NCBI GenBank assembly: GCA_964494885.1
Contig: CAZBTH010000003.1
Location: 5,983 to 69,982, forward strand
Direction of reading: 5' to 3'
Length of the DNA: 64,000 nt
Origin: an uncultured Gammaproteobacteria bacterium
GTDB taxonomy: Bacteria > Patescibacteriota > Microgenomatia > UBA8517
Below, piece after piece: positions 3,573 through 63,584 of this stretch. The notes under the pieces were generated by a model. It was not told where the DNA came from. It worked only from the letters and a program-made list of their open reading frames with translations, and searched no databases. Positions within the stretch are counted from its first letter, which is position 1. The number at the start of each line of letters is the position of its first letter. Made by a program: the position numbers and the translations under genes.

Positions 3573-4067
3573 ATGGAAAGAACTGGAGAATATATAAAAG
3601 AAGCATATAAGTTTGCGGCAGCTAATTCAACTGATCTTAGTACTCAAATCGGCGCAATTCTTGTTGATGGGTCCGGTATACCTGTAGCCTGGGGAGCAAA
3701 CCATTTCCCAAGGGGTGTTGCCGAAACTTCCGAAAGACTCCAAAGACCAGCCAAATATCTGTACGTTGCTCACGCAGAACTTGAATCAATCCTTAATGCG
3801 GCAAGAAACGGTGTAAAAACGGAAGGGCTTAGTATGTACGGCACATGGGTCGCATGCAACGAATGCGCAAAATCAATAATTGACTCAGGAATCGTTAAGG
3901 TTGTAGGGCACAAAAAAGCGATGGACGCGGCACCCGAGAGATGGCTTGAACCGATAAGAATCGCAGCAGGAATGTTTGAAGAAGCCGGAGTTGTATTTGA
4001 AAACTGGGAAGGCGATATTGGCGGAGATATTGTAATCCGCTTTAACGAACAACCATTCAAACCTTAA
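3573..4067 (+). CDS. dCMP/cytidine deaminase family protein (ComEB-like)
   Basis: Zinc motifs HAELESI and CNECAKSI (H-A-E ... C-x-x-C). Confidence 0.8.
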   Translation: MERTGEYIKEAYKFAAANSTDLSTQIGAILVDGSGIPVAWGANHFPRGVAETSERLQRPAKYLYVAHAELESILNAARNGVKTEGLSMYGTWVACNECAKSIIDSGIVKVVGHKKAMDAAPERWLEPIRIAAGMFEEAGVVFENWEGDIGGDIVIRFNEQPFKP

Positions 4068-6527: not shown

Positions 6528-7217
6528 ATGCCCACAAAAAACTCCATTAAAATTTACGCAGAAAACACTATCTATCATGTTTACAATCGCGGCGTGGAAA
6601 AAAGAGATATCTTTCTAGACGAACAGGATTATAAAGTTTTTCTTGGATACCTAAAAGAATACTTGTCCCCACCCCCAAGTCTTGAAGATAGAATAAAAAA
6701 ATCTTTTACCTTAAAAGGTCGGACCTTTAAAGGTGTATCAAGACAGCCCAATAATTACTGCGAAAAAATTGATCTTTTGGCGTATTGTCTAATGCCCAAT
6801 CATTTTCACTTCATATTAAAACAAAATGATGACAAGAACACTTTGAAGGAATTTATGCGATCCCTACTTACAAGGTATTCAGTATATTTCAATAAAAAAT
6901 ATGAGCGTGTCGGATCGTTATTCCAAGGTAAATATAAAGCGATTATCGTAATGGACGAAGTCTATCTACTCCATCTGTCGAGATATATTCACATAAATCC
7001 TTATGAGATAACCAAAGATCTTGTAAACGCATATTCTTCTTATGCCGAATATTTAGGCATTAGGCACACAGATTGGATAAAACCAAAGCTTATACTTTCC
7101 TATTTTACCAATCAAAAAACGACCCCCGAATTTACAGCAATCAATACTTATAAAAGTTTCGTAGAAAATTATTTAAAAGATAATTCGAACATATTGGAAG
7201 GTCTAAGATTAGAGTAG
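6528..7217 (+). CDS. IS200/IS605-family Y1 (HuH) transposase, REP-associated tyrosine transposase (RAYT)-like
   Basis: YHVYNRGVEKRDIF, HuH motif LMPNHFHFIL, catalytic-Tyr motif RYIHINPY (compare YIYINP in E. coli RAYT). Flanked by REP palindromes and carries one internal copy. Confidence 0.85.
   Translation: MPTKNSIKIYAENTIYHVYNRGVEKRDIFLDEQDYKVFLGYLKEYLSPPPSLEDRIKKSFTLKGRTFKGVSRQPNNYCEKIDLLAYCLMPNHFHFILKQNDDKNTLKEFMRSLLTRYSVYFNKKYERVGSLFQGKYKAIIVMDEVYLLHLSRYIHINPYEITKDLVNAYSSYAEYLGIRHTDWIKPKLILSYFTNQKTTPEFTAINTYKSFVENYLKDNSNILEGLRLE
6711..6735. repeat. REP-like palindrome inserted in frame inside the RAYT gene
   Basis: TTAAAAGGTCGGACCTTTAAAGGTG, translated as LKGRTFKGV. Confidence 0.8.
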
Positions 7218-15873: not shown

Positions 15874-15880
15874 ACTTTTG

Positions 15881-15952
15881 TGCCCTCAGAGGGAATTGAA
15901 CCTCCATCTTACCCTTAGGACGGGTCTGCTCTATCCGTTGAGCTATGAGGGC
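15881..15952 (-). tRNA. tRNA-Arg (anticodon CCT)
   Basis: The reverse complement folds as a cloverleaf. Acceptor GCCCTCA/TGAGGGC, anticodon loop GTCCTAA, T-loop TTCAATT. CCA not encoded. Confidence 0.8.
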
Positions 15953-15961
15953 ATATTTACC

Positions 15962-16036
15962 TGGTCGGGGTGCTGGGAATTGAACCCAGTGTCTTTACGT
16001 CCCGAACGTAACGTGATACCGATTCACTACACCCCG
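15962..16036 (-). tRNA. tRNA-Pro (anticodon CGG)
   Basis: Acceptor CGGGGTG/CACCCCG, D-stem GTGA/TCAC, anticodon stem TTACG/CGTAA, loop TTCGGGA, T-arm CTGGG-TTCAATT-CCCAG. CCA encoded. Confidence 0.85.
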
Positions 16037-26195: not shown

Positions 26196-28025
26196 TCACA
26201 TTCGTTCGGGCGCTTGTATCCCAAGAAGTTGAAGGCCATTCTTAAGTATCTGCCCTGTTGCAGCTGTAAGCGTCACTCTGAATGCACTTATACTCTTCCA
26301 CTCTTCTGCTTTTCTACTCTCATCCTCCAAAATTCTAAATTTATTGTAAAAAGTATTATATTTCGAAGCCAAATCATATAAATAGTTACACAAAAGATTG
26401 GGTGAGTAAGTTTTGGCTGCAGTCGCTATTACCTCAGTAAATCGGGATAAAGCTCTTAGTAACGACAATTCTTCTTCAGTTTCCATTTTCCATTTGCCAT
26501 TTATCATTTCATTTGTAGATTTGCTTATTTGCTTATTTGTAGATTTAAGAAGTACGCTGTTGCATCGAGCAACTGTATATTGAAGATATGGGCCCGAGTT
26601 GCCTTCCAAAGACAGGGAACTTTCAAAATCGAACGCAATGTCCCCGCCTATCCCTTGCTTTAAAAATGCATATTTAACGGCTCCAAGGGCAACCTGTTCT
26701 GCAATTTCATCTTCCATATTGTGTGCATCAAGAAGTTTTTTCTTAGCTTCGTCCAAAACCCATTCCCCCCTAATAATTTTTCCGGTTCTTGAACTCATCT
26801 TTCCTTCGGGAAGACGGACCATCCCGTGCCCTATGTGTGTTGTAGCCTCGGCAAGATCCTTTTTGTACATAGATAGGGCTTTAAGGACAACGTCAAAATA
26901 GGCATCAATCTCGTTACCGGTCACGATAATCGATTTGTCATATGGAAAATCTTTGTATTTGGCAACAGCATTGCCGAAATCCTTGGCTTCGTATGTGGGC
27001 AAATTAAGGGCATTTATAAAAACCCTATTATGCAAACCGTATTTTTCTCCAGGAAAAATTACAGCGCCACGCTCACCCTTCTCAAAAATTCCTTTGGCCA
27101 AACCGTCCAAAACCATTCCATAGCCAAATTCTCCGGTTCTGCTTTCCGGATAATAGCCGTCAAACTTCATCCCAACCCTTTTATAAATTGATTCGAAATA
27201 TTCCAAACTCCATGCCCTACCAATTTCATAAATATTTTTGATTTCAGAATAAGAATACTTGCCGTCTTTTTTGATATATTGATCGTAGTTCACCTGTGGA
27301 GATTCGTTGAATTCCGGCAAAACCACTTCCTGTGCAGCCTTGAAAATTAAAAAGTTAAGCTCTTTCATATCTTCTACTGCTTTCGGATCTTCTTCAAAAG
27401 CAGTTGCACCTTTTGCGTATGCTTGTCCAAAATACTCGATTCTTTCTTTTAGAGGCTTTTCGGTAAGGTCTTTAATATCAACTTTGTCCTCTGAAAACTT
27501 AAACATTAAACCCCAAATCGCCTTGGCAGCATGCATGCCAACATCGCCAAAATAATCGGCTCGCCATACGTCTCCGCCAATCGCGCTTTGCAAGCGGCTA
27601 ATCGATTCACCAACCGTATTTGTATATAAGTGGCCTATATGAAACTCTTTGAATGGGTTGGGATCGGTATATTCAACAACTACTTTTTTACCCTTAAGAA
27701 AACCGCTCTTTCCATAACTTTCCCCTTCTTTCTGTATCTTCCCAAGCTCGTTGACAAGGGTCCCCCCTGTCAACCAAAAATTTATAAAACCCGGGCCGGC
27801 GACTTCAATTTTTTCAATAAATTTGGATAATTCGGGAGACTGGGATAGTTTGATTTTGATTTCTTCAGCCAATTCCCTTGGATTTTTGCCCTCGCTTTTT
27901 GCCATGATTAGCGCAATATTGCACGAGTAGTCGCCGAATGTTTCGTTTTCGGGAAATTCCAAGCTGATTTCCTTTGCTTTGGTTACAGCTTCTAAAGCCG
28001 TTAGTATTTTAGTTCTAGTTTCCAT
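26196..28025 (-). CDS. argS: Arginine--tRNA ligase
   Basis: HIGH-class motif region and KMSSRTG (the KMSKS-like motif). C-terminus ...LLGIQAPERM. The likely start is METRTKIL at 28025. Confidence 0.9.
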   Translation of the reverse strand: METRTKILTALEAVTKAKEISLEFPENETFGDYSCNIALIMAKSEGKNPRELAEEIKIKLSQSPELSKFIEKIEVAGPGFINFWLTGGTLVNELGKIQKEGESYGKSGFLKGKKVVVEYTDPNPFKEFHIGHLYTNTVGESISRLQSAIGGDVWRADYFGDVGMHAAKAIWGLMFKFSEDKVDIKDLTEKPLKERIEYFGQAYAKGATAFEEDPKAVEDMKELNFLIFKAAQEVVLPEFNESPQVNYDQYIKKDGKYSYSEIKNIYEIGRAWSLEYFESIYKRVGMKFDGYYPESRTGEFGYGMVLDGLAKGIFEKGERGAVIFPGEKYGLHNRVFINALNLPTYEAKDFGNAVAKYKDFPYDKSIIVTGNEIDAYFDVVLKALSMYKKDLAEATTHIGHGMVRLPEGKMSSRTGKIIRGEWVLDEAKKKLLDAHNMEDEIAEQVALGAVKYAFLKQGIGGDIAFDFESSLSLEGNSGPYLQYTVARCNSVLLKSTNKQISKSTNEMINGKWKMETEEELSLLRALSRFTEVIATAAKTYSPNLLCNYLYDLASKYNTFYNKFRILEDESRKAEEWKSISAFRVTLTAATGQILKNGLQLLGIQAPERM

Positions 28026-28059
28026 ATAAATTTTATAACTTTTATAATAGTTATAATTG

Positions 28060-28611
28060 TTATACACTGCTTTTTTTATACTCCATCCTCTTTTTAAACA
28101 AGTTCTCTCTAAAACCACCCTCTTTAATAAATTTCTCCTCGGTCCAACGAAGTTTTTGATCCAAAAGTTGGTTTGTTTGGTTTATTAAACAAAGCATGGC
28201 GTTGGCTGCAGCCTCGGGGTTCCCAATATAACTTTTATAAAGGTTATAATTTTTATAATTGTTATACGCAAGCCGTCGGACAGCTTGCGCCTCAGAAGAG
28301 CCCACTTCCCAAACCTTTAACCCTTTTTGTCTTAAGTAATCTTGATAGTCATTTAACAGTTCTTCTAAACTTCCTCTGGCAACACCTAAAAGTTTAATTC
28401 TGCCTTCCAGGCTTTTTTGCAAATATCCTTCAGCTATATTCTGTTTGCCGCTTCTTGCCGCCTGCTCCATTTGGTCTTTGGTGCGAGATTTGTAATTGAT
28501 ATAGAGTTTGCAAAATTCAACAGTAAAATCGTAAACAATTTCGCTTTGAATATAGAAAGGTAACGTTTTGTAACCCTTATTTTCCATTTTTACTATTTTA
28601 TTATAACCCAT
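28060..28611 (-). CDS. Four-helix-bundle protein (TIGR02436 family, long form; paralog of 16114)
   Basis: TVEFCKLYINYKSRTKDQMEQAARSGKQNIAEG aligns with the 16114 ORF. Confidence 0.6.
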   Translation of the reverse strand: MGYNKIVKMENKGYKTLPFYIQSEIVYDFTVEFCKLYINYKSRTKDQMEQAARSGKQNIAEGYLQKSLEGRIKLLGVARGSLEELLNDYQDYLRQKGLKVWEVGSSEAQAVRRLAYNNYKNYNLYKSYIGNPEAAANAMLCLINQTNQLLDQKLRWTEEKFIKEGGFRENLFKKRMEYKKSSV

Positions 28612-29708
28612 TAATCAGGCTTGGCATATTCGCTAATTACTTTCTCAAATATTTTTGCACACTTTTCGACCTTATCAGAATAACAATATTCATTCGCCTT
28701 ATGCATCTGTGTTATCTCCCCCGGACCGAATATTACTGTCGGAATTCCAATTTGCGTAAAAAACGGCATGTCAGTAGACCCCGGGAATGCCACCAGTTTT
28801 GCCTTTGAAACGTTTTTGACAATTTTGGCGATATCTTCGCCGCTTTCCGTAAACCCAAAGCTAACCGGCGGATAAAGGTACTCAACTTTACCAATTCTGC
28901 CTACAGATTTTTTTACAGCCTCAAAAGCAGTTTCATGTATTTCCGGAATGGTTCTAATATCGAATGTTGCGGAGCACGCATCCGGAAATTTATTTGGGGC
29001 TATTTCAGTTCCAGCCATGATAGAGGTGGCAAGGCTAATTGTAGGAAATCCTAAAATCTTATTCTTGTATTTCTTTTTCCACTCGGCACCCAAGTTATCT
29101 ATTCTTGATATCAATTTAAACATTCTTAGAACTGCATGATCAGATTTCTTAATTGGCTTGCTCCCATGCCCCGAGTCCCCCGTCGTAATCACTTTTATAA
29201 ACAAATTTCCTTTATGCGCGACACCGATTAACCCTAATCCTGTTGGTTCACAGACAATTGCTGATACTTTTTTATATACTTTTAGATGCTTTGTTGCCAA
29301 CCACTCAACTGTATCATTTGTCCCGTGACCATCCACTTCTTCCCCCACTGTAAACGTGAGAATTACATCACACTCCGGTTTTTTGACAGAAAATTCTTTT
29401 GCCAAAAGCATAAGTACCGCGACCGAAGCTTTATTATCGCTTGATCCAAGACCAAATATCTTGCCGTCTTTTCCGATTCCACCAAAAGGATCGTGTTGCC
29501 ATAGATCAATATCTCCCGGGCTTACCGTATCTACATGAGAATTAAATATCAGGCATTTTTTACTGTTTGACCCTTTTACGGCCGCAACCACATTACCTTT
29601 AATATTTATGGTTTTAAGTCCACAAGAGGTCAAGAAATCATAAATATATCCGATGATCTCCTTTTCCTCACCTGTCACAGAATTTATTTGTATTAACTTT
29701 TTTAACAT
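28611..29708 (-). CDS. M20-family metallopeptidase (ArgE/DapE-like deacylase)
   Basis: NSHVDTVSPG and GSSDNKAS metal-binding motifs. Size fits the family. Confidence 0.7.
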   Translation of the reverse strand: MLKKLIQINSVTGEEKEIIGYIYDFLTSCGLKTINIKGNVVAAVKGSNSKKCLIFNSHVDTVSPGDIDLWQHDPFGGIGKDGKIFGLGSSDNKASVAVLMLLAKEFSVKKPECDVILTFTVGEEVDGHGTNDTVEWLATKHLKVYKKVSAIVCEPTGLGLIGVAHKGNLFIKVITTGDSGHGSKPIKKSDHAVLRMFKLISRIDNLGAEWKKKYKNKILGFPTISLATSIMAGTEIAPNKFPDACSATFDIRTIPEIHETAFEAVKKSVGRIGKVEYLYPPVSFGFTESGEDIAKIVKNVSKAKLVAFPGSTDMPFFTQIGIPTVIFGPGEITQMHKANEYCYSDKVEKCAKIFEKVISEYAKPD

Positions 29709-30181
29709 TATTTGATGATAACCGGTGTGTCACAGCACACCTTTCCGGCTTTTTTAGCCTCTATAAACATCGGGCAGTTGACGCACTCACCCCAAACCTC
29801 CTTTGGCAACAAATCGGGATCTGTTAATATTTCTACTCCATTGTCCAAAAATATCTTTAAACTTTTTTCGTTACATAAAGCAAAAAGTTTAGCTTCTGGA
29901 AAAATCAATTTGGCCGCCGAAATTAGATCTTTGACCACTTTGTGTCCCAATCCGTGTTCTCTTTTGACCGGATCCACAATCACCGCCCCAAGTTCTTTCC
30001 AGCCATCTGGCCAATCAAATGTTATGGCTCCAAATCCGGCCACTTCCCCATCGCCATTTAAGACAACGATACCCCTTCCCTCTTCCAGAAATTTAAAAAT
30101 TTCTTCGGGACTTTTGGGTAGCATTGACCCCGACTCTTTAGTCCAATCTGATATTTTTATTGACACGTTTTCTCTTTCCAT
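29708..30181 (-). CDS. GNAT-family N-acetyltransferase with a C-terminal Cys cluster
   Basis: Acetyl-CoA-binding region GLGHKVVKDL. C-terminal CVNCP...CC. Confidence 0.6.
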   Translation of the reverse strand: MERENVSIKISDWTKESGSMLPKSPEEIFKFLEEGRGIVVLNGDGEVAGFGAITFDWPDGWKELGAVIVDPVKREHGLGHKVVKDLISAAKLIFPEAKLFALCNEKSLKIFLDNGVEILTDPDLLPKEVWGECVNCPMFIEAKKAGKVCCDTPVIIK

Positions 30182-30182
30182 G

Positions 30183-30219
30183 TGCGCCCGGCGGGAATCG
30201 AACCCACAACCACGGGCGC
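30183..30219 (-). ncRNA. tRNA-like minihelix (acceptor stem plus T-arm only) abutting the GNAT start codon
   Basis: On the minus strand: GCGCCCG-TGGTT-GTGGG-TTCGATT-CCCGC-CGGGCGC-A, followed immediately by CATGG, the GNAT start. There is no D-arm or anticodon arm. Confidence 0.5.
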
Positions 30220-30224
30220 AAGCT

Positions 30225-30267
30225 AGACTACGTTCTTTATTCCCCTTGGAACGTAGTCTCTTTTTGG
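30225..30267 (+). terminator. Strong hairpin plus T-run (plus-strand terminator-like) next to the minihelix
   Basis: AGACTACGTTC-13 nt loop-GAACGTAGTCT followed by CTTTTTGG. Confidence 0.45.
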
Positions 30268-30397
30268 ACTTATTTTGTTATGCAAAAGGTATATCTTGCT
30301 CCAGTTACACAAACAACTTTGTTGTCATTTGTGTTTTTATTACAACCTACAAGTAATAGCGACACCAAGGTCAAACAGGTAAGCAACTTCCTGATTT

Positions 30398-30637
30398 TCA
30401 TCGTCCACCTCGACTGTCAAAAGGGCTTGATTTTGGTGCATCCCCGGGCGGCTCCGGCGGATCATCGTCTACGAGAAGCGACCCAACGAACAGCAATATC
30501 GCTCCGATAGAAAATCCGTCCATCATGCCGGTTAATATTGGATGTGGCGGCCAGACACCCTCTTTGAACGCAAAAATTGCAATGAGCAGACTAAACCCAA
30601 GCAATATTGTGCCCAAATAACGAAATAACTTTTTCAT
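30398..30637 (-). CDS. Small two-TM membrane protein (79 aa)
   Basis: AAGGAG SD 6 nt upstream of the ATG at 30637. The track N-terminal extension (MHIKNVNIKN) is encoded by a 16-nt tandem repeat and is probably 5' UTR. Confidence 0.55.
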   Translation of the reverse strand: MKKLFRYLGTILLGFSLLIAIFAFKEGVWPPHPILTGMMDGFSIGAILLFVGSLLVDDDPPEPPGDAPKSSPFDSRGGR

Positions 30638-30689
30638 CGTATACTCCTTTTTTACGTTTTTTATGTTTACGTTTTTTATGTGCAACTTT

Positions 30690-30900
30690 GGGCCACAAAC
30701 CCTCCTTCGCGCAAGGCTTCGGAAGGGTCGCTAACGCAAAAAGCCCCGTTAGCGTCCGAGAAATAAATCTCAGAAACTAAAGGGGCTCTTCACTTACGGC
30801 TAGAGGGCGGCTTGCCACTCCGTAGCCTTGGCGAAGGGTGGTACCACCCTTGTTCAATTATCCTTAAAACCATCCAACTCCGCACGAGGCTTCGTTGGAC
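30690..30900 (-). other. GC-rich ORF-free structured region (candidate leader, riboswitch or ncRNA) upstream of the small membrane gene
   Basis: Several perfect hairpins: CGCTAACG...GTTAGCG, AAGGGTGG-ta-CCACCCTT, CCGCG-ttgta-CGCGG. Local GC about 52% against about 38% background. Confidence 0.4.
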
Positions 30901-30923
30901 AAAGAAAAACCGCGTTGTACGCG
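30901..30923 (-). terminator. Rho-independent terminator on the minus strand
   Basis: Minus strand reads CCGCG-tacaa-CGCGG then TTTTTCTT. Confidence 0.6.
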
Positions 30924-31125
30924 GTTAATTCAAACTTAAAGGACAATCCTTATTATTTGAGTTCTCCGTTTGACGACAAACTCTAGCTTGCTTTTACGGT
31001 AAGCTCCCGTCAGACATTTTGGTCTGCTGCTCGCAAGGCGCGAACTTGCTATGACGCATTTATTAGACTGGAGGTAATTGTATAATATTTGGACAAATTG
31101 TCAACCATCAATTGCCACCTATAGG

Positions 31126-31224: not shown

Positions 31225-31638
31225 ATGAAGAAAAATAAGTTGTTTCAGGCGATTGCCTCGATCTTGATATTGATTTTACTGGTCGCCTGCTCCGTGGAGC
31301 AATCCGAGACAGCACGCGCACCAACTGCCATTGCTGTTCCAGAACCCATATATTATGGGGACTTAACTTTAGACATAACCTGGGTACAGGAAAACAATGC
31401 GATCCACATCGTAGCGCACATGTTTCCACCGGCTGGATTCACGGCAAAACCGCAAGCACTCACAGTTTTGAACAGTGAACTTTTGCCGATTTTTTCGGCA
31501 ACTCTCAGCAACATAGGTTTCGACGAAACGAAATACATCACCCCCCAGACTCTGGCAGTCTATTTGGGTGAGAACGGTCCAATTTTTATTGAAGGGTATG
31601 GGGTTTACCATTACAATTTTACGGTAGCATACCCGTAA
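31225..31638 (+). CDS. Lipoprotein, hypothetical
   Basis: Signal peptide with lipobox LLVAC (MKKNKLFQAIASILILILLVACS). Confidence 0.65.
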   Translation: MKKNKLFQAIASILILILLVACSVEQSETARAPTAIAVPEPIYYGDLTLDITWVQENNAIHIVAHMFPPAGFTAKPQALTVLNSELLPIFSATLSNIGFDETKYITPQTLAVYLGENGPIFIEGYGVYHYNFTVAYP

Positions 31639-31745
31639 GCAAAACCGGATCAGTGTTATTTTTATTTCGCTTTTAACACTGATCCGGAAAGTTTCTTCAT
31701 TCCGCAATTTGATTTCACCCCTATTTTCGGATACAATTCCCCCAC

Positions 31746-32765
31746 ATGTCAAATGAAAGATTGGGCAGGCTAATATCAAATATACCTAATCCCACAAATG
31801 CCGAACTAGCCGAATTAGAAGCAAGGTATATTAAAAATTATCATTTTGATTACTCCGCAATCAAAAAAATAGACATCGACGACTTGTTGGACCTCCATAT
31901 CGCAGATATCCCCGAAGTCAAGTTAAACAGCTTGGAAGAAGATATCGCTCTGGCCAAACGCATTGAGAATGGAGGGGATGATGCCCAAGAGGCCCGTGAA
32001 GCCCTTTTTTACTCTGTTGTTTACATGGTAATCTCGGAAGCCTCCAAAAAAACAAAAGACAAACAAGAAATGATGGATCTAGTTCAAGAAGGAAATTTGA
32101 TTCTTTGGGAAAAGGCGATAGAAAAGTATGATTGGAGACACGGCTTCAAGTTTTCCACCTACGCAATGTGGTGGATCAGAAGCGCTCAATCCAGATATTT
32201 GAGTAGGAACTCTCGACCGTATAGGGTGCCAGAAAAGGTGATTCTTGATTCCAAAATAGTGGTGAGAACCTTCGACCGTCTTTCTGATGAGAACCAACAC
32301 AAACCCACCCTTAAAGACATCTCTGAAGTTACAGGAATAAAACCAGACAAGGCTCGAGAACTTTTTGATTTTGCAAAACAAAAATATGTTTCCCTCTCTT
32401 CACCCACGAACAAACGCGACGACATGGAAGTTGAGGAAACAGCAGAGGACCATAAATCATTACACGGCATAGCCCTGGAAGACAGCATTGACGAAAAAAA
32501 CCACATTGAGTTTGTAAAATCAAAGATAGTGGAAGAATTATCACACCTCATTCCAAGACAAAGAGAAGTTCTAAAGTTCAGGCTTGGAATTGGCAATCAA
32601 AACATATGGAATGGGGATTATATGCCATTCGAAAAAATCGGAAAAATCATGGGGGGTATTACAAGGGAAAGGGTTAGACAAATACAAAGAGATGGACTGA
32701 GAAATATTAAAGACAGAAAGATTCACAACCTCTTGATAACAATTTTATCTTCCAGCAAAATTTGA
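31746..32765 (+). CDS. RNA polymerase sigma factor, sigma-70 family (RpoD-like)
   Basis: Region 2.4 FSTYAMWWIRSAQSRYL. Region 4.2 MPFEKIGKIMGGITRERVRQIQRDGLRNI. Confidence 0.8.
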   Translation: MSNERLGRLISNIPNPTNAELAELEARYIKNYHFDYSAIKKIDIDDLLDLHIADIPEVKLNSLEEDIALAKRIENGGDDAQEAREALFYSVVYMVISEASKKTKDKQEMMDLVQEGNLILWEKAIEKYDWRHGFKFSTYAMWWIRSAQSRYLSRNSRPYRVPEKVILDSKIVVRTFDRLSDENQHKPTLKDISEVTGIKPDKARELFDFAKQKYVSLSSPTNKRDDMEVEETAEDHKSLHGIALEDSIDEKNHIEFVKSKIVEELSHLIPRQREVLKFRLGIGNQNIWNGDYMPFEKIGKIMGGITRERVRQIQRDGLRNIKDRKIHNLLITILSSSKI

Positions 32766-46613: not shown

Positions 46614-49600
46614 ATGGACAAACTACCAAAACTAACATCGAAAATAATCAAATCCTATCAAAATGAGATTGCCAGAAGTGATTCGGCCGCAACCGCAAAG
46701 AGAAAAATAGTTTCTTTGAAAAAATTTCTTGATTGGGCAAAAACCAAAGGCCTTATAGATATAAATTTGGAAGAGACAATCATTACTCAGGCTAAAAACG
46801 AAACAAAATTCCCCGCAAAAAAAGCGTTAAATATCAGATTCCAGAACTTATACAAAAGATATCGCAATATACCAGGAACTTCTTATTTGAATATTGCAAT
46901 ACTTGTAATCCTATCCTCCACCTTAGGACTCGGTATATACAATCAATTCTTTAAAAACGCCACAAACCCATTTGCTGCAACGTCTTTAGTTCGACCTAAC
47001 CGCTATCTTTCTTTTCAGGGCAGATTAACTAATCAATTTTTGAATCCGGTTACAGCTGTAACAAGTGTAGTTTTTACTCTATATGACGCGGCAAGCTCCG
47101 GTACCACGCTTTGGACCGGCACCTGTAATGTAACTCCGGATACGGATGGGGTTTTTTCAACCCTTCTTGGAAGCGACTGCGGTTCGGAGATTTCCAGTAG
47201 TGTTTTTTCTGACAATGCCAGTGTTTGGCTGGGAGTTAAAGTCGCAGCAGACGCTGAGGCCACCCCCAGAATCCAGATTGCAACTGTTGCCTATGCCCTA
47301 AATTCGGAAACTCTTCAGGGATACCCGGCCTCTTCAAGTGCAACAATTAACACAGTGCCCGTGGTCAACAACTCAGGACAAATTGTCTTGGCGGTGAGCT
47401 CCCCTAAAATTCAATCCACGACAGGTACCTTTGCAATCGAAGGGCAGGCCATAACAATACAAACTCCAAGTGCATCAAATGGTAATGTTACTATAGCACC
47501 GGATGGCACGGGACAGCTTAACTTGACATTTACAGGCGCCTCCCCGGGGTCTGGAACCGGAATGGTGAACGCAACCGACGCCAACTTAACCTCCGGTTCC
47601 TTGTATTACGGTTCGGTTGCTTCTGACGCATCAGGTTACAACCTTTTGCAGTTACAATCCGGATCCACTCTTTCCAATAAATTCGTAGTCGATTCAGCCG
47701 GAAACGCATCTGCATCGGGTGATTTAACTTTGGCGGGAGTTAGTTCGATCCAAACAACAACATTTAGTCCCCTTACCATTGGCGGAAGTACAACAGGAAA
47801 TATAGTACTATCACCATCAAACAATATCGCGGGGGGCAATGTTTCGCCTGGAGTTACAAATGTGACCGATCTAGGAACCGCTTCCCTCTTGTTTAGGAAT
47901 ATTTATGCAACAACTTTGTACCAAGGCGTCAACCAAGTCTGTGATGCCGGGGGTGGGGTTGCAGGATGCGCAGGCGCAAACTACTGGAGACTTGCCAATA
48001 ATGTCCTTTCCCCTATCCAAGTTGCATATGATTTGACAATCGGCGGAAGCGCAACAGGTAGCGCCTTCCAGGTTTATGCCGCAACGGGAAATGTGGCTTC
48101 AGCCGGAGTAGGACAATTTGGTAGTACCTCGGTGTCAACCTATTCGAGGTTTGGGTCAGCAACTACAGAGCATTCTCTTTCTTCAGCCAGCGATCTCTTG
48201 GTAAACGGAAAGTTGGAACTTAACGATACTCTCTTTCTCGACGGAGGAACAATTGCAAACTCTGCAGGCACGGGAACTATTACTTTTTCCCCTACACCAA
48301 CAACAGCCTCCAACGCCCTTTCCGCAAGCAACTGGCTTATAGAAAATACCGCCAATGTTGGTCAAGCGGCCCTTATGGTTAATCAGGTAAAAGGTGGGGA
48401 TATTTTTACAGCCTCTCAATCAGGAATTCCCGTATTTACGGTGGCCCACCTGGCAGGTACAGTGGCTAACGGCATAACTTTAACTGGTGCGGCTACAGGC
48501 AGCGGCCCAACCATAACAGCAACCGGTTCCGACACAAACATAGCACTTTCCATAGATTCAAAGGGTACCGGAGCATTAAATTTGAATAATACTGCAACAG
48601 GGGATATTCTCTTGGCAGGAGGAGTTGGAGCAACGGGATGCACACTAACCAACTCCACCGGCGCGCTTTCTTGCGCTGGAAACATATCAACAACTGCCAC
48701 AAGTGGAACTCAAGGCTGGTGGCAGCGTGTTGCCGGTAACCTATCTCCGATTAATCTTAATGATACTATTTCTGCCACCACCTCGGCCGCTACAGCCATG
48801 ACCATCACCCAAACCGGCGCTTTCGACGCTTTCTTGGTACAAGACGCGGCTGGTGACACCACTCCATTTGTCATCGACCAATCGGGCAACGTCGGCATTG
48901 GTGACACCACTCCAAGTTATTTACTTGATGTTGCAGGTACTCTTAATTCAACGGGAAGCACCACGCTTGGAACCGGAGCTTCTTCAGTTAATGTTATTGG
49001 TTCTACCACCACTCCAGGAACATTAACTTTACATGGAGCTACAACTCTAGACGACACTTTCACAGTATCTGGAAATAACTTAACATCTCTAGGAGGCAAT
49101 CTCACTCTTAGCGGTACCACAATTACCGCTTCCTCGCTTGCTACACTAACAACTTCATCTGCAGTTGCTTGGGGTGGGGCTACCGAGCTTACCTTTACTG
49201 CTGATAACGCAACTATCTATGGATCGAATGCTGCTAGTGGAAACCTTATTCTTGATGGGACTAGTAATGCTACAAAAACTTCCAGTTATGTGATTATCCA
49301 ACCAAATGGTGGCAACGTCGGAATCGGTACTTCTGCACCTACGGCTACATTAGAAATATTAGCTGATGTTGATACTCCTTCAGGTAACGCCATAGAGGTT
49401 CAAGCGGTCGAATCAGCTAATCTTAACGACCAAGATGCTGATGATATTACTTTCACAAATGCTACAACATGCTGGACATACGGTGCCGGCTGGGCTCGTT
49501 CTGGTGGGACGGCCCTTCATTCCGCGTTAGTAGGTACTGAAAATTTATCTTGCAATTTAACAGACGGCTATATTGATAATAATCAAATATATAGAATGAC

Positions 49601-51497
49601 TTTTGATATGGGAGGAAGAACAGCTGGCACTGTCACTCCAAAAGTTGGAACGGCAGCTCACGATGCAATTAGTGCTAATGGTTCATACGATCTTACCTTC
49701 GACGCTACAGCTAATAATACAGATATAATTTTTACTCCTGACATTAATTTTAACGGTTATATTGATAATGTTTATATCTATCGAAGAGCCGTCAATACTG
49801 TTATTTCTGATACTGGAAGAGTGGGTATTGGACGAGCAACACCTGCATACTTTCTTGATGTTTTGGCTCCGGAAAATGGAGTCATTGCCAGATTCTTAAG
49901 TGACAACACCACTGGTTGTACTTTGGCAACTGGAGGTACTATTTCTTGTACTTCAGATGTCCGGCTAAAACAGGATATTGAAGACACTTCTTTTGGCCTA
50001 GATACTATTATGAACTTAAGACCAGTAGATTTTAACTGGAAAAGCGGAGCTTCAATTTATAAAAACCTTGGTTTTATTGCCCAAGAAGTTGAAACGCTTA
50101 TCCCTAATCTGGTTAACGTTGATCAAGATAATGGTTACAAACAACTCAATACAACAGGGCTTATTCCTGTCCTCACAAAAGCTATACAAGAACAGCAAAT
50201 ACAAATTTCTACCCTCTCCACCCAACTCGCGGATTTAAAGATCAATTCTACAGGCGATATCACTTTATCCGGTAATCCAGTTTCCGGTTATACTGTCTCT
50301 ACTCCTATCGGCATTACTCAAAAAATTGGTGCTTTTGCCAATTTAGTTGCTGCAAATATACACGCAGGGGCGCTGATTACTGATGAACTGCTTACTGATA
50401 AACTGAATGCGGTTGTAGCAACAGTTCAAAAGCTGACAACTAATAGTTTAGCGGTTAAACTGATATCCCCTCTTCCTGATCAAACTGACGTTACAGTAAA
50501 ACTCGGAGGTGAGGCAACACCATCAGGAAAACTGGCGATTCAAAACTCACAAGGTGATGAAGTGGCTGCTATCGATTCGTCTGGCAACGCAACATTCTCC
50601 GGTACAGTAAACAGTAACCAGTTAACAGTAAACAGTGAAGCAACTATTTCCGGAACTCTTTTTGCAGACAACATAAAATCAAAAAGTCTGGATGAAATTC
50701 AAGCACTTTTGACAAAAGTCCAGACTGACCAGGGTCTTCTAAAGGACGCTCAAAGCTGGAACACCAACACCGCAACAAACTCAGCAACTCTCTCAGGTCT
50801 TTCCGCCAGTGATCTATATATAACAAACCAGGCCGCAATTAATTCACTGTCTATTTCTAAAACTTTAGCTGTCGGTTCTGATCTTGTATTTAGTTCCTCA
50901 GTCAACAGTGAACAGTCAACAGTGAACAGCATTGACACTTTGTCTGCTCCACTTCGGATTCAGAGTTTGACAATGGCACCAGTTGAGCTTATGGCCGGAC
51001 TTGTAACAATAGATACACACGGAAATGTTACGATCGGCGGAGACTTGAATGTAGCAGGCAGAATACACTCCTCCGGTCTAACCTTGCAAGGAACAAACTT
51101 ACAAGATGACAAAATTCTTAATCTCCAAAGTCAAACCGGAATCCTGGTCGCCTCGGTGGACGCAAGTGGATCGGCCGAATTCGAATCAGTTTATACTCCC
51201 CAACTTATTATTGCGGGGGCTGACGCAACAACCCCAGGTGCTGTGGTAAACGGAGCAACAACAACAAACTCAACAATCGGACATACGATAATACCGGCAG
51301 GAACAAATGAGATAACAATTATCAATCCCAAGGTTACCGACTATACCCTAATCTATGTGACACCAACCTCGTCAACCCAAAATAATGTATTATATGTAAA
51401 GAGCAAACAAAAAGGACAATTCACAGTTGGATTTGCAATCCCGATTGATACAGACGTCTCATTCAATTGGTGGATAGTCCAGGTACAAAAATGGTAA
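46614..51497 (+). CDS. Giant (1627 aa) membrane-anchored surface fibre protein with an internal S74 endosialidase-chaperone-like domain
   Basis: N-terminal SAM-like half-domain (SKIIKSYQNEIA...SLKKFLDWAKTKGLI), TM helix, Thr/Gly/Ser/Ala-rich beta-rich repeats. SDVRLKQDIEDTSFGLDTIMNLRPVDFNWKSGASIYKNLGFIAQEVETLIPNLV...GYKQLNTTGLIPVLTKAIQEQ matches the S74 intramolecular chaperone domain. Confidence 0.7.
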   Translation: MDKLPKLTSKIIKSYQNEIARSDSAATAKRKIVSLKKFLDWAKTKGLIDINLEETIITQAKNETKFPAKKALNIRFQNLYKRYRNIPGTSYLNIAILVILSSTLGLGIYNQFFKNATNPFAATSLVRPNRYLSFQGRLTNQFLNPVTAVTSVVFTLYDAASSGTTLWTGTCNVTPDTDGVFSTLLGSDCGSEISSSVFSDNASVWLGVKVAADAEATPRIQIATVAYALNSETLQGYPASSSATINTVPVVNNSGQIVLAVSSPKIQSTTGTFAIEGQAITIQTPSASNGNVTIAPDGTGQLNLTFTGASPGSGTGMVNATDANLTSGSLYYGSVASDASGYNLLQLQSGSTLSNKFVVDSAGNASASGDLTLAGVSSIQTTTFSPLTIGGSTTGNIVLSPSNNIAGGNVSPGVTNVTDLGTASLLFRNIYATTLYQGVNQVCDAGGGVAGCAGANYWRLANNVLSPIQVAYDLTIGGSATGSAFQVYAATGNVASAGVGQFGSTSVSTYSRFGSATTEHSLSSASDLLVNGKLELNDTLFLDGGTIANSAGTGTITFSPTPTTASNALSASNWLIENTANVGQAALMVNQVKGGDIFTASQSGIPVFTVAHLAGTVANGITLTGAATGSGPTITATGSDTNIALSIDSKGTGALNLNNTATGDILLAGGVGATGCTLTNSTGALSCAGNISTTATSGTQGWWQRVAGNLSPINLNDTISATTSAATAMTITQTGAFDAFLVQDAAGDTTPFVIDQSGNVGIGDTTPSYLLDVAGTLNSTGSTTLGTGASSVNVIGSTTTPGTLTLHGATTLDDTFTVSGNNLTSLGGNLTLSGTTITASSLATLTTSSAVAWGGATELTFTADNATIYGSNAASGNLILDGTSNATKTSSYVIIQPNGGNVGIGTSAPTATLEILADVDTPSGNAIEVQAVESANLNDQDADDITFTNATTCWTYGAGWARSGGTALHSALVGTENLSCNLTDGYIDNNQIYRMTFDMGGRTAGTVTPKVGTAAHDAISANGSYDLTFDATANNTDIIFTPDINFNGYIDNVYIYRRAVNTVISDTGRVGIGRATPAYFLDVLAPENGVIARFLSDNTTGCTLATGGTISCTSDVRLKQDIEDTSFGLDTIMNLRPVDFNWKSGASIYKNLGFIAQEVETLIPNLVNVDQDNGYKQLNTTGLIPVLTKAIQEQQIQISTLSTQLADLKINSTGDITLSGNPVSGYTVSTPIGITQKIGAFANLVAANIHAGALITDELLTDKLNAVVATVQKLTTNSLAVKLISPLPDQTDVTVKLGGEATPSGKLAIQNSQGDEVAAIDSSGNATFSGTVNSNQLTVNSEATISGTLFADNIKSKSLDEIQALLTKVQTDQGLLKDAQSWNTNTATNSATLSGLSASDLYITNQAAINSLSISKTLAVGSDLVFSSSVNSEQSTVNSIDTLSAPLRIQSLTMAPVELMAGLVTIDTHGNVTIGGDLNVAGRIHSSGLTLQGTNLQDDKILNLQSQTGILVASVDASGSAEFESVYTPQLIIAGADATTPGAVVNGATTTNSTIGHTIIPAGTNEITIINPKVTDYTLIYVTPTSSTQNNVLYVKSKQKGQFTVGFAIPIDTDVSFNWWIVQVQKW

Positions 51498-57204: not shown

Positions 57205-58032
57205 TCACAAATTTTTAAGATATTCCTTTGCCAATTCTTGAAAATTCCCGGCGAACGACATTACCGACTCCCTTTCTTCTATAAACGGAGTTAAATCGTC
57301 TTCAATCATCTCTTTTGTAACTTTTTTAATCTTTTGGTTAATCAGTTTAATAGCCTTAACTTTAGACAAGCCTGTTTGGTTTTCAACCTGAACCCAATTG
57401 GGTTTTATTCCCTTCTCCAGATACCAAATCAGATCATAATAATCCCTGCCTTTAAACCTGACAACATTTTCCACTCCTTCGATTTTCTCTCTGGTTAATA
57501 TTGCGCTGATTTTGCCCGCAAACAAATCTTCAATAGAGTATCTCCTCATCACAAAGGAAAGATTCTCATAACTTTTGGCTGTGACCTCCACCCTTGCATA
57601 GGGCTTGTCGTTTTGAGAAAAATCAATCCGGATATGCAATATATTAGTCTCACTTTGATCTACCGGTAACCCAATTTCTTTGAGTATCGGAAACTTCAAG
57701 TAAATTGTTCTTCTATTGTTTGCAAGTTTAACTGACAAATCGTCAAATTTTAGCCTTTCGGAAAAATAATTTTTTAAAGCATCGGAAAAATCTTCTATGT
57801 TAAAATTTGACCCGACCTCAACGTCAAAATCTAAATCTTCCGAAAGTCTTGGCAGCTTAAAACAAAACCTCAAGGCGGTCCCGCCCTTAAATAAAAGGAT
57901 CTTGCCCCAATTGCCCGTAAAGACGAAGTTGAGTACGTAATACTGAATGGCCTCTTTTAACAGGCTTCTAACATAGAGCTTATTTTTATCTTTATTCTCC
58001 AGATATACTTGTTTTAATTTAGAAAGAAACAT
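57205..58032 (-). CDS. AbiEii-like nucleotidyltransferase toxin (type IV TA), copy 1
   Basis: LLFKGGTALRFCFKLPRLSEDLDFD shows the GGTAL and SEDLDF hallmarks of the AbiEii family. Confidence 0.75.
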   Translation of the reverse strand: MFLSKLKQVYLENKDKNKLYVRSLLKEAIQYYVLNFVFTGNWGKILLFKGGTALRFCFKLPRLSEDLDFDVEVGSNFNIEDFSDALKNYFSERLKFDDLSVKLANNRRTIYLKFPILKEIGLPVDQSETNILHIRIDFSQNDKPYARVEVTAKSYENLSFVMRRYSIEDLFAGKISAILTREKIEGVENVVRFKGRDYYDLIWYLEKGIKPNWVQVENQTGLSKVKAIKLINQKIKKVTKEMIEDDLTPFIEERESVMSFAGNFQELAKEYLKNL

Positions 58033-62891: not shown

Positions 62892-63584
62892 ATGTCGCTT
62901 AATATACCAAAACACAGAGATATCCTTTTACAAATTCTAAAGGATGTATATTCTGATACAACAATTTCTTCATTTTTAGGATTTAAAGGAGGGACCGCCG
63001 CTCTGCTTTTTTATGATTTAAGCCGTTTTTCAGTAGACCTGGATTTCGATTTGATTGATGAAACTAAAGAAGATGAAGTTTTTGAAAAAATAAAAGTGAT
63101 TTCTCAAAAATATGGTGTGCTGGAGGCTAAAAAGAAACGTTTCAATTTGATATTTATTATTTCCTATGCAAAAAATGAGCAAAAGATCAAAATTGAAATT
63201 AACCGCAGACATTTTGGTTCAAAATACCAACTAAGGACTTATTTAGGTATCTCCGTACTTGTTATGAATGAGGAGGATATGTTTGCCCATAAATTGATGG
63301 CTATGAACGAAAGATTTGAGAAAACCAGCCGTGATATATATGACGTTTGGTTCTTTTTGAAAAAAGGTTGGCCAATTAATAAAAAAATTATTGAAGAAAG
63401 ATCGGGTAAATCTTTTATTAGTTTATTAAAAGACAATTTGAATAAATTAGAAAATATGAATAATGGCAATATTCTAAAAGGAGTTGGCGAACTTTTAACG
63501 CAAAGTCAAAAGGACTGGGCAAAGGCAAAACTAAGAGATGATACAATATTTCTTTTGAAATTAAGATTGGAAAACGAAAATTAG
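62892..63584 (+). CDS. AbiEii-like nucleotidyltransferase toxin, copy 3
   Basis: LGFKGGTAALLFYDLSRFSVDLDFD. Confidence 0.75.
   Translation: MSLNIPKHRDILLQILKDVYSDTTISSFLGFKGGTAALLFYDLSRFSVDLDFDLIDETKEDEVFEKIKVISQKYGVLEAKKKRFNLIFIISYAKNEQKIKIEINRRHFGSKYQLRTYLGISVLVMNEEDMFAHKLMAMNERFEKTSRDIYDVWFFLKKGWPINKKIIEERSGKSFISLLKDNLNKLENMNNGNILKGVGELLTQSQKDWAKAKLRDDTIFLLKLRLENEN

Follow-up and report, generated by a model that had tools for sequence, protein, structure and literature searches.

The question raised by this locus is why a segment folding like part of a tRNA stands directly before the start codon of a protein gene, and whether it is a relic, a processing signal or a regulator. The DNA analysed, here called the window, is a stretch of 64,000 nt from an uncultured groundwater bacterium. 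On its minus strand the 37 bases at 30219..30183 form a minihelix, followed by a single C and the ATG of a gene for a GNAT acetyltransferase. Its parts are as follows.

30219..30213, minus strand: 5′ strand of the acceptor stem, GCGCCCG
30212..30208, minus strand: linker TGGTT of 5 nt (U8 plus the variable-loop bases GGUU)
30207..30203, minus strand: 5′ strand of the T stem, GTGGG
30202..30196, minus strand: T loop of 7 nt, TTCGATT
30195..30191, minus strand: 3′ strand of the T stem, CCCGC, giving a 5-bp stem with one U-G pair
30190..30184, minus strand: 3′ strand of the acceptor stem, CGGGCGC, giving a 7-bp stem
30183, minus strand: discriminator base A
30182 and 30181..30179, minus strand: spacer C and the GNAT ATG, which aligns with the ME.E N-termini of homologues

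The earlier note had described this layout of acceptor stem, 5-nt linker and T arm on the minus strand, and the sequence reads as it said. It had also taken the last nucleotides to overlap the ATG and to be fused to it. The minihelix in fact stops one spacer base before the ATG; only a notional CCA tail would overlap the start codon.

The 37-mer folds with −22.0 kcal/mol, the structure drawn accounts for 93% of the ensemble, and it is kept when the element is folded in contexts of 106 nt and 321 nt. All 12 of the 12 pairs are intact and form a 12-bp coaxial stack of acceptor and T stems with a canonical T loop, while the D and anticodon arms are absent. The 7-bp acceptor stem, the 5-bp T stem and the 7-nt T loop (GTTCRANNC) have the dimensions of a tRNA, and the base at position −1 is U. 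The T-loop motif taken alone is not significant. A scanner for the whole architecture (7-bp acceptor, short linker, 5-bp T stem, TTCRANN loop) was run over both strands of 1.03 Mb of fetched DNA and returned the minihelix, one poor match of high GC content and nothing else. Because this result is near-unique, and because the 31 bases at the 3′ end match tRNA-Arg genes at 100%, the minihelix is not a chance structure. An assembly artefact is ruled out, since contigs from several assemblies and samples carry the identical sequence at the locus. Two contigs from two other assemblies (L135 and L137) both end at window position 30187, within the CGGGCGC strand of the acceptor stem. The assembly graph may have broken here because real tRNA-Arg genes share the sequence, or both assemblies may go back to the same reads. 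The other end of L135 has 176 bases without a match.

The minihelix is not recognized by tRNA finders. ARAGORN makes no call there; its only tRNAs in the window are two at 15880-16036, and it reports no tmRNA in the window. The Rfam tRNA model (RF00005) has no match at 30183-30219, either at E ≤ 10 or at the gathering threshold. The best tRNA-like Rfam match on the minus strand is to mascRNA-menRNA (RF01684), with 20.6 bits against a gathering score of 42.5 and E = 0.27, and the tmRNA model (RF00023) matches the T arm of the minihelix only, with 13 bits. With no call from ARAGORN or Rfam and no cloverleaf with D and anticodon arms, a full tRNA is rejected, in agreement with the earlier note. 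A split tRNA, which that note had kept as an option, is not supported, since both acceptor strands lie in one continuous stretch and pair together, which makes a partner half unnecessary. An integron attC site, a tmRNA and a YrlA-like RNA were also considered and set aside, as none has motif or Rfam support.

The 5′ 7–8 nt and the 3′ 30–31 nt of the minihelix are identical to those of genuine tRNA-Arg genes (anticodons TCT, TCG and CCG; acceptor strands GCGCCCG and CGGGCGC, T arm GTGGG, TTCGATT, CCCGC), and the identity takes in GGTT, the T arm and the discriminator A. In a tRNA-Arg(TCT) gene of L038, 7 + 31 nt are identical, the 31 nt TGGTTGTGGGTTCGATTCCCGCCGGGCGCAC matching at 100%, and 30-nt matches are present in tRNA-Arg genes of L020, L071, L078, L111, L113 and L124. 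These seven genes and the minihelix have the 5′ sequence GCGCCCGT in common, and a tRNA-Arg(TCG) gene of Patescibacteria (L039) shares the 5′ sequence GCGCCCGTGG with it. Both remaining parts are thus collinear with, and near-identical to, a tRNA of a single identity. Judged by this agreement, the minihelix is a derivative of a tRNA-Arg gene minus positions ~9-44, that is, the D arm, base 26 and the anticodon arm; having no anticodon, it cannot decode. The decayed tRNA that the earlier note had listed among its possibilities fits these observations. The sole tRNA-Arg gene of the 64-kb window (CCT, 15880-15952) differs from the minihelix in sequence.

Genome contigs, one genome per species, were scanned for the 3′ half, which gave at least 120 stretches. 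Among the 120 matches listed, all are full-length tRNAs or 3′ remnants; none is a minihelix, and in none is a 5′ acceptor strand found within 35 nt. Two Planctomycetota sequences (L073 and L104) have only the 3′ two-thirds of tRNA-Arg(TCT) next to unrelated 5′ sequence and are ordinary att-type remnants. The pattern GCGCCCG-N(2-12)-T arm-CGGGCGC has 0 matches in viral contigs, and a looser minihelix pattern has 0 in metagenome contigs. The literature search returned nothing specific on bacterial minihelix elements.

The surroundings of the minihelix comprise a leader and an operon of four genes, all on the minus strand.

30738..31104, minus strand: T-box-type leader (from a motif scan, a match to RF00230 below gathering and an alignment with relatives)
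31104..31077, minus strand: leader promoter, TTGACA-16-TACAAT
31042..31040, minus strand: CGC in the short first hairpin, the loop of which has an invariant CGCG
30849..30841, minus strand: T-box motif GGGTGGTAC
30786..30738, minus strand: T-box terminator
29708..30181, minus strand: GNAT acetyltransferase, 157 aa (Pfam PF00583 and homologues)
29708..28611, minus strand: M20 peptidase (Pfam)
28611..28060, minus strand: 23S-rRNA-IVP-like four-helix-bundle ORF (Pfam)
28118..26196 as listed, minus strand: arginyl-tRNA synthetase, ArgRS (Pfam)

The leader lies ~0.55 kb upstream of the minihelix. It scores 16.1 bits with the T-box model RF00230, and the leader of one relative (L002) 22.1 bits, against a gathering score of 93. 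The alignment with six relatives, on the other hand, displays an invariant AAGGGTGGTAC and stems that visibly compensate. The T-box bulge reads UGGU, a match to the discriminator A, and AAGGG in the leader can pair with CCCTT of the terminator 5′ strand as an alternative pairing. A UGGN-bulge motif, a competing terminator and a specifier that fits the synthetase are therefore all present. CGC is an arginine codon, and since this codon in the loop of the first hairpin fits the ArgRS gene downstream, the leader is read here, from its sequence features, as a divergent Arg T-box.

A T-box-type leader also precedes GNAT in nine relatives of the candidate-phyla-radiation (CPR) lineage, eight of which have ArgRS downstream in the fetched DNA. 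Leader coordinates in the relatives are L002 3700-3960, L005 3660-3978, L006 3875-4131, L010 272-529, L011 3606-3915, L138 1-240 and L139 390-650. Midway along these leaders, before the T-box motif is reached, stands a conserved hairpin that carries a T run. The window's own motif is part of a perfect 18-nt palindrome, AAGGGTGGTACCACCCTT, at 30834-30851, which could sequester the UGGU bulge; the relatives do not have the palindrome. Nothing specific on CPR Arg T-boxes was found in the literature. The operon also varies between M20 and ArgRS: this position is empty in L002-L006, is occupied by an ORF with a tRNA_bind domain in L011, and in the window holds the IVP-like ORF (28060-28611).

Between the arginine-type leader and the conserved GNAT-M20-ArgRS operon, the window carries an insertion in which the minihelix is the last element.

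30182..30685, minus strand: lineage-specific insertion of ~0.5 kb (~500 bp), from comparison with L002-L006, L010, L011, L138 and L139
30398..30637, minus strand: orphan ORF of 79 aa, preceded by a good Shine-Dalgarno sequence, AAGGAG, and containing two hydrophobic segments
30270..30401, minus strand: ORF of 43 aa with a lipoprotein-like signal, LLVGC, its ATG overlapping the stop of the 79-aa ORF (ATGA)
30225-30235 and 30249-30259: arms of a hairpin of 11 bp, 100% complementary, with a 13-nt loop

In order, the insertion consists of the 79-aa ORF, the 43-aa ORF, the hairpin and the minihelix. Its left edge is approximate, at 30686-30700, placed by homology of TTTGTGGCCCAAAG with the sequence that follows the terminator in relatives; its right, downstream edge is the minihelix. 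For both ORFs the ribosome-binding sites are good, the products show membrane or lipoprotein features, and the pair is now under T-box control. No homologues of either were found. A search of the 79-aa ORF against 5.8 billion proteins returned itself as the sole match, and the 43-aa ORF has no Pfam match. BLAST of the insertion against all fetched DNA gives self-matches and tRNA 3′ halves only. A donor-locus pattern, a hairpin arm joined to the tRNA 5′ end, has 23 matches in metagenomes, all of them chance matches inside coding DNA.

The earlier note had pointed to the 11-bp hairpin with a T run on the plus strand, and this description holds. The run, T5 at 30261-30265, belongs to the plus strand only; the minus strand has A5 before the hairpin and no U tract after it, and the minus-strand terminator scan does not list the hairpin at 30225-30259. 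Lacking a U tract on the operon strand, it should not terminate transcription of the operon. The T-box leader 0.55 kb upstream, the two orphan ORFs and the status of the whole block as a lineage-specific insertion are context beyond that note.

Both junctions of the insertion carry the 6-nt direct repeat GCACAT, at 30683..30678 and 30185..30180, and a 27-nt stretch of 70% similarity recurs there with a spacing of 504 nt. A target-site duplication is rejected, as the similarity of the junctions is not significant (p ~0.07; 7% of random 51-nt pairs drawn from the window do equally well).

Ten GNAT homologues, 61–79% identical, could be placed on contigs (L001-L006, L010, L011, L138, L139), which are Saccharimonadales-like if judged by the name that one source gives to a homologue. 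Minihelix and insertion are absent in all ten. In nine of them 20–110 nt separate the T-box terminator from the GNAT ATG, with no small ORFs and no tRNA-like sequence in between. The tenth, L001, has a shorter leader and no minihelix either. The order GNAT-M20-ArgRS is conserved among the relatives. Conservation upstream of GNAT orthologues, by which the earlier note had proposed to judge the element, is therefore lacking, and this speaks against a conserved function. All other contigs with the insertion block come from the same population, and those that extend into the minihelix match it at 100% over the part they cover. There is no diverged copy, and retention across related genomes is not seen: the only copies are identical ones from a single population.

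L001 has the closest GNAT relative beyond the population of the window (79% identity). At 3850-4000 the 5′ half of the leader is retained, together with the first hairpin and its T run; the T-box motif is absent, and M20 and ArgRS are not downstream, the neighbours being HisRS and tRNA-His instead.

With a probability of about 65%, the minihelix is a recent, internally deleted tRNA-Arg relic in a young insertion, and its predicted cleavage is a tolerated by-product that has not been selected. An internal deletion of a tRNA-Arg gene would have taken the D and anticodon arms (~9-44) and spared the acceptor stem and T arm; the ~0.5-kb insertion would have landed between the Arg T-box leader and GNAT, displacing the short spacer of the relatives. 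On the minus strand, no promoter-like or terminator-like site is found from 30738 to 30182, which suggests that the minihelix is part of the operon transcript and would be transcribed within the operon mRNA upon T-box read-through. As in t-elements, a tRNA-like fold with a conserved T arm then stands inside an mRNA precursor.

Bacterial RNase P needs no more of its substrate than acceptor stem and T arm. RNase Z faces the acceptor and T domains in their stacked form, and the remaining parts of the tRNA are largely dispensable (PMC3790967). The U at −1 is favourable. Among the 39 window ORFs scanned with Pfam there is no RNase Z, RNase P protein or CCA-adding enzyme. Since it would be co-transcribed with the operon, the minihelix is a probable cleavage target of both enzymes in the operon RNA, with RNase P expected to cut before G30219 and RNase Z after A30183. 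Cleavage would split the RNA of the small ORFs from that of GNAT-M20-ArgRS and leave GNAT with a leader of 1 nt (C-AUG). The cleavage is taken as a tolerated by-product because a single population has the minihelix, and in all relatives the operon functions in its absence.

How GNAT would then be translated depends on its start codon. Gene callers are split, giving products of 157, 152 or 138 aa. The ancestral ATG has no Shine-Dalgarno sequence before it. One caller chooses a GTG at 30166..30164, five codons downstream and behind a weak Shine-Dalgarno-like sequence, GGAAAGAG; translation from this GTG would be the alternative to a start at C-AUG.

Three observations weigh against the relic. 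The remnant is flawless, and the deletion took precisely the D and anticodon arms, neither of which processing requires. This is neater than a random event would have to be, although the minihelix was noticed for its neatness and the argument is tempered by this. The arginine identity is the same as that of the operon's ArgRS and of the CGC specifier of the T-box, a coincidence of roughly 1 in 10. The minihelix also ends exactly 1 nt before an ancestral start without a Shine-Dalgarno sequence.

These observations lend themselves to a functional bacterial t-element, that is, a selected punctuation for RNase P and RNase Z that uncouples the small ORFs, produces a near-leaderless GNAT mRNA (C-AUG) and offsets the loss of the Shine-Dalgarno region. 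Such a role is unlikely, even if it carries more weight than any other alternative. The substrate geometry is perfect and includes the U at −1, and the 3′ edge lies 1 nt from the ATG. There are precedents as well. In plant mitochondria, tRNA-like t-elements direct cleavage by RNase P and RNase Z at mRNA ends, and the 5′ end of Arabidopsis rps4 is at +2 beside a t-element (PMC1920247); t-elements of Haloferax are likewise cut by RNase P and RNase Z (PMC6546412). The genome moreover has tRNA genes without an encoded CCA, for example tRNA-Arg CCT, so that CCA addition is to be expected, and with it a trimming of tRNA 3′ ends by an exonuclease or by RNase Z. Every copy, however, is identical, so that the copies offer no variation in which conservation could show, and ten of ten relatives do without the minihelix. 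Three of these (L001, L010 and L011) also lack a Shine-Dalgarno sequence before GNAT, yet have no minihelix to offset it, and the GTG start would supply the window gene with a Shine-Dalgarno-like sequence of its own. The minihelix shares with t-elements the acceptor stem and T arm, the GGTTCRANYCC motif, a location inside a protein-coding transcript and the adjoining start codon. It differs from them in that it is known from sequence, whereas t-elements have mapped ends or cleavage assays, and in being bacterial, a bare minihelix and limited to a single lineage.

The processing-signal and regulatory-mimic roles that the earlier note had offered may be called structurally plausible. A version that joins the two is a shade more doubtful than punctuation by itself: the trimmed tRNA-Arg would be a natural bacterial t-element that punctuates the T-box operon, releases a 37-nt minihelix, leaves a C-AUG mRNA and might feed back on the Arg T-box.

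Less probable again is that the minihelix matters as a junction only, marking the end of a mobile or illegitimately recombined segment whose donor locus had a tRNA-Arg gene at its end. Genes for tRNAs are common targets of recombination and integration; the right edge of the insertion coincides exactly with the minihelix, GCACAT recurs at both junctions, as does the 27-nt similarity with its 504-nt spacing, and the region from ComEC to the T-box differs in every relative. The similarity of the junctions does not go beyond chance, however, no integrase or transposase is nearby, and BLAST, protein, viral and metagenome searches did not find a donor. Like att-type 3′ remnants, the minihelix is a tRNA-derived fragment at an edge of inserted DNA; such remnants (L073, L104) consist of a contiguous 3′ part without the 5′ acceptor strand, whereas here both acceptor strands are present and paired. 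An att-type remnant is rejected for this reason and for the absence of an integrase in the neighbourhood, and the statement of the earlier note that the element is not a simple 3′ remnant stands.

It is very improbable that the minihelix acts as a mimic of tRNA-Arg, either as a processed, CCA-added and unchargeable RNA that offers A-CCA to the UGGU bulge of the T-box in a positive feedback, or as an operator bound by ArgRS. The arginine identity, a T-box upstream with CGC in its loop and a bulge that matches the discriminator A, and an ArgRS gene within the same operon would all suit this role. But nine relatives have a like T-box leader and no minihelix, and for eight of the nine the fetched DNA includes ArgRS. 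A T-box relies heavily on contacts with the elbow and between anticodon and specifier to bind its tRNA, and the anticodon and A20 of the D loop are what ArgRS recognizes; anticodon, elbow contacts and A20 are all lacking in the minihelix. At its 3′ end the minihelix encodes A-CAU instead of A-CCA, and A73 is found in most tRNAs, which makes the match of the discriminator a weak one. Equally slight is the chance that the plus strand is the relevant one, with the reverse complement of the minihelix, the hairpin and the T run forming the 3′ end and terminator of an antisense RNA over the GNAT start: this strand folds well (−37 kcal/mol, z = −4.0), alone has the T run after the hairpin and carries a promoter-like site at 29803-29831, but such sites are common in the AT-rich DNA of the window, the canonical T loop and T stem and the tRNA-Arg match belong to the minus strand only, and nothing is conserved.

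The minihelix can also be placed beside two other groups of tRNA-like RNAs. With mascRNA and MEN-beta RNA (RF01684) it shares the mimicry of acceptor stem and T arm; those RNAs lie at the end of longer transcripts and are processed by RNase P and RNase Z. That family is vertebrate and nuclear and keeps extra arms, and the minihelix scores below its gathering threshold. Like the tRNA-like domain of tmRNA, the minihelix has an acceptor stem and T arm but no anticodon arm; unlike tmRNA, it is without G3:U70, the tag reading frame and pseudoknots. Most likely, then, it is a known kind of object in an unusual form: a relic of a tRNA with a likeness to t-elements, rather than a conserved regulator.

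As a relic, the minihelix is a tidy example of the decay of a tRNA gene and of the entry of foreign DNA into a riboswitch-controlled operon without destroying it. If cleavage takes place and is used, it would represent tRNA-type mRNA punctuation, known from mitochondria and an archaeon (Haloferax), in a bacterium, and also a compact natural tag for RNA processing. Either way, the findings argue against annotation of the minihelix as a regulator or as a tRNA, whole or split; the real control element of the operon is the T-box leader 0.55 kb upstream.

Farther upstream, the stretch from the ComEC/MBL gene to the T-box promoter (31225-32765, plus strand) holds a sigma-70-like gene and a 137-aa ORF, and its gene content is different in every relative (L002, L005, L006, L011). 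This variation suggests that the stretch is a recombination hot spot. Elsewhere the window carries a gene for an IS200-like Y1 transposase (6528-7217, plus strand), two AbiEii-type toxin genes (57205-58032, minus strand, and 62892-63584, plus strand) and a gene for a 1627-aa protein bearing an endosialidase-chaperone (S74) domain (46614-51497, plus strand).
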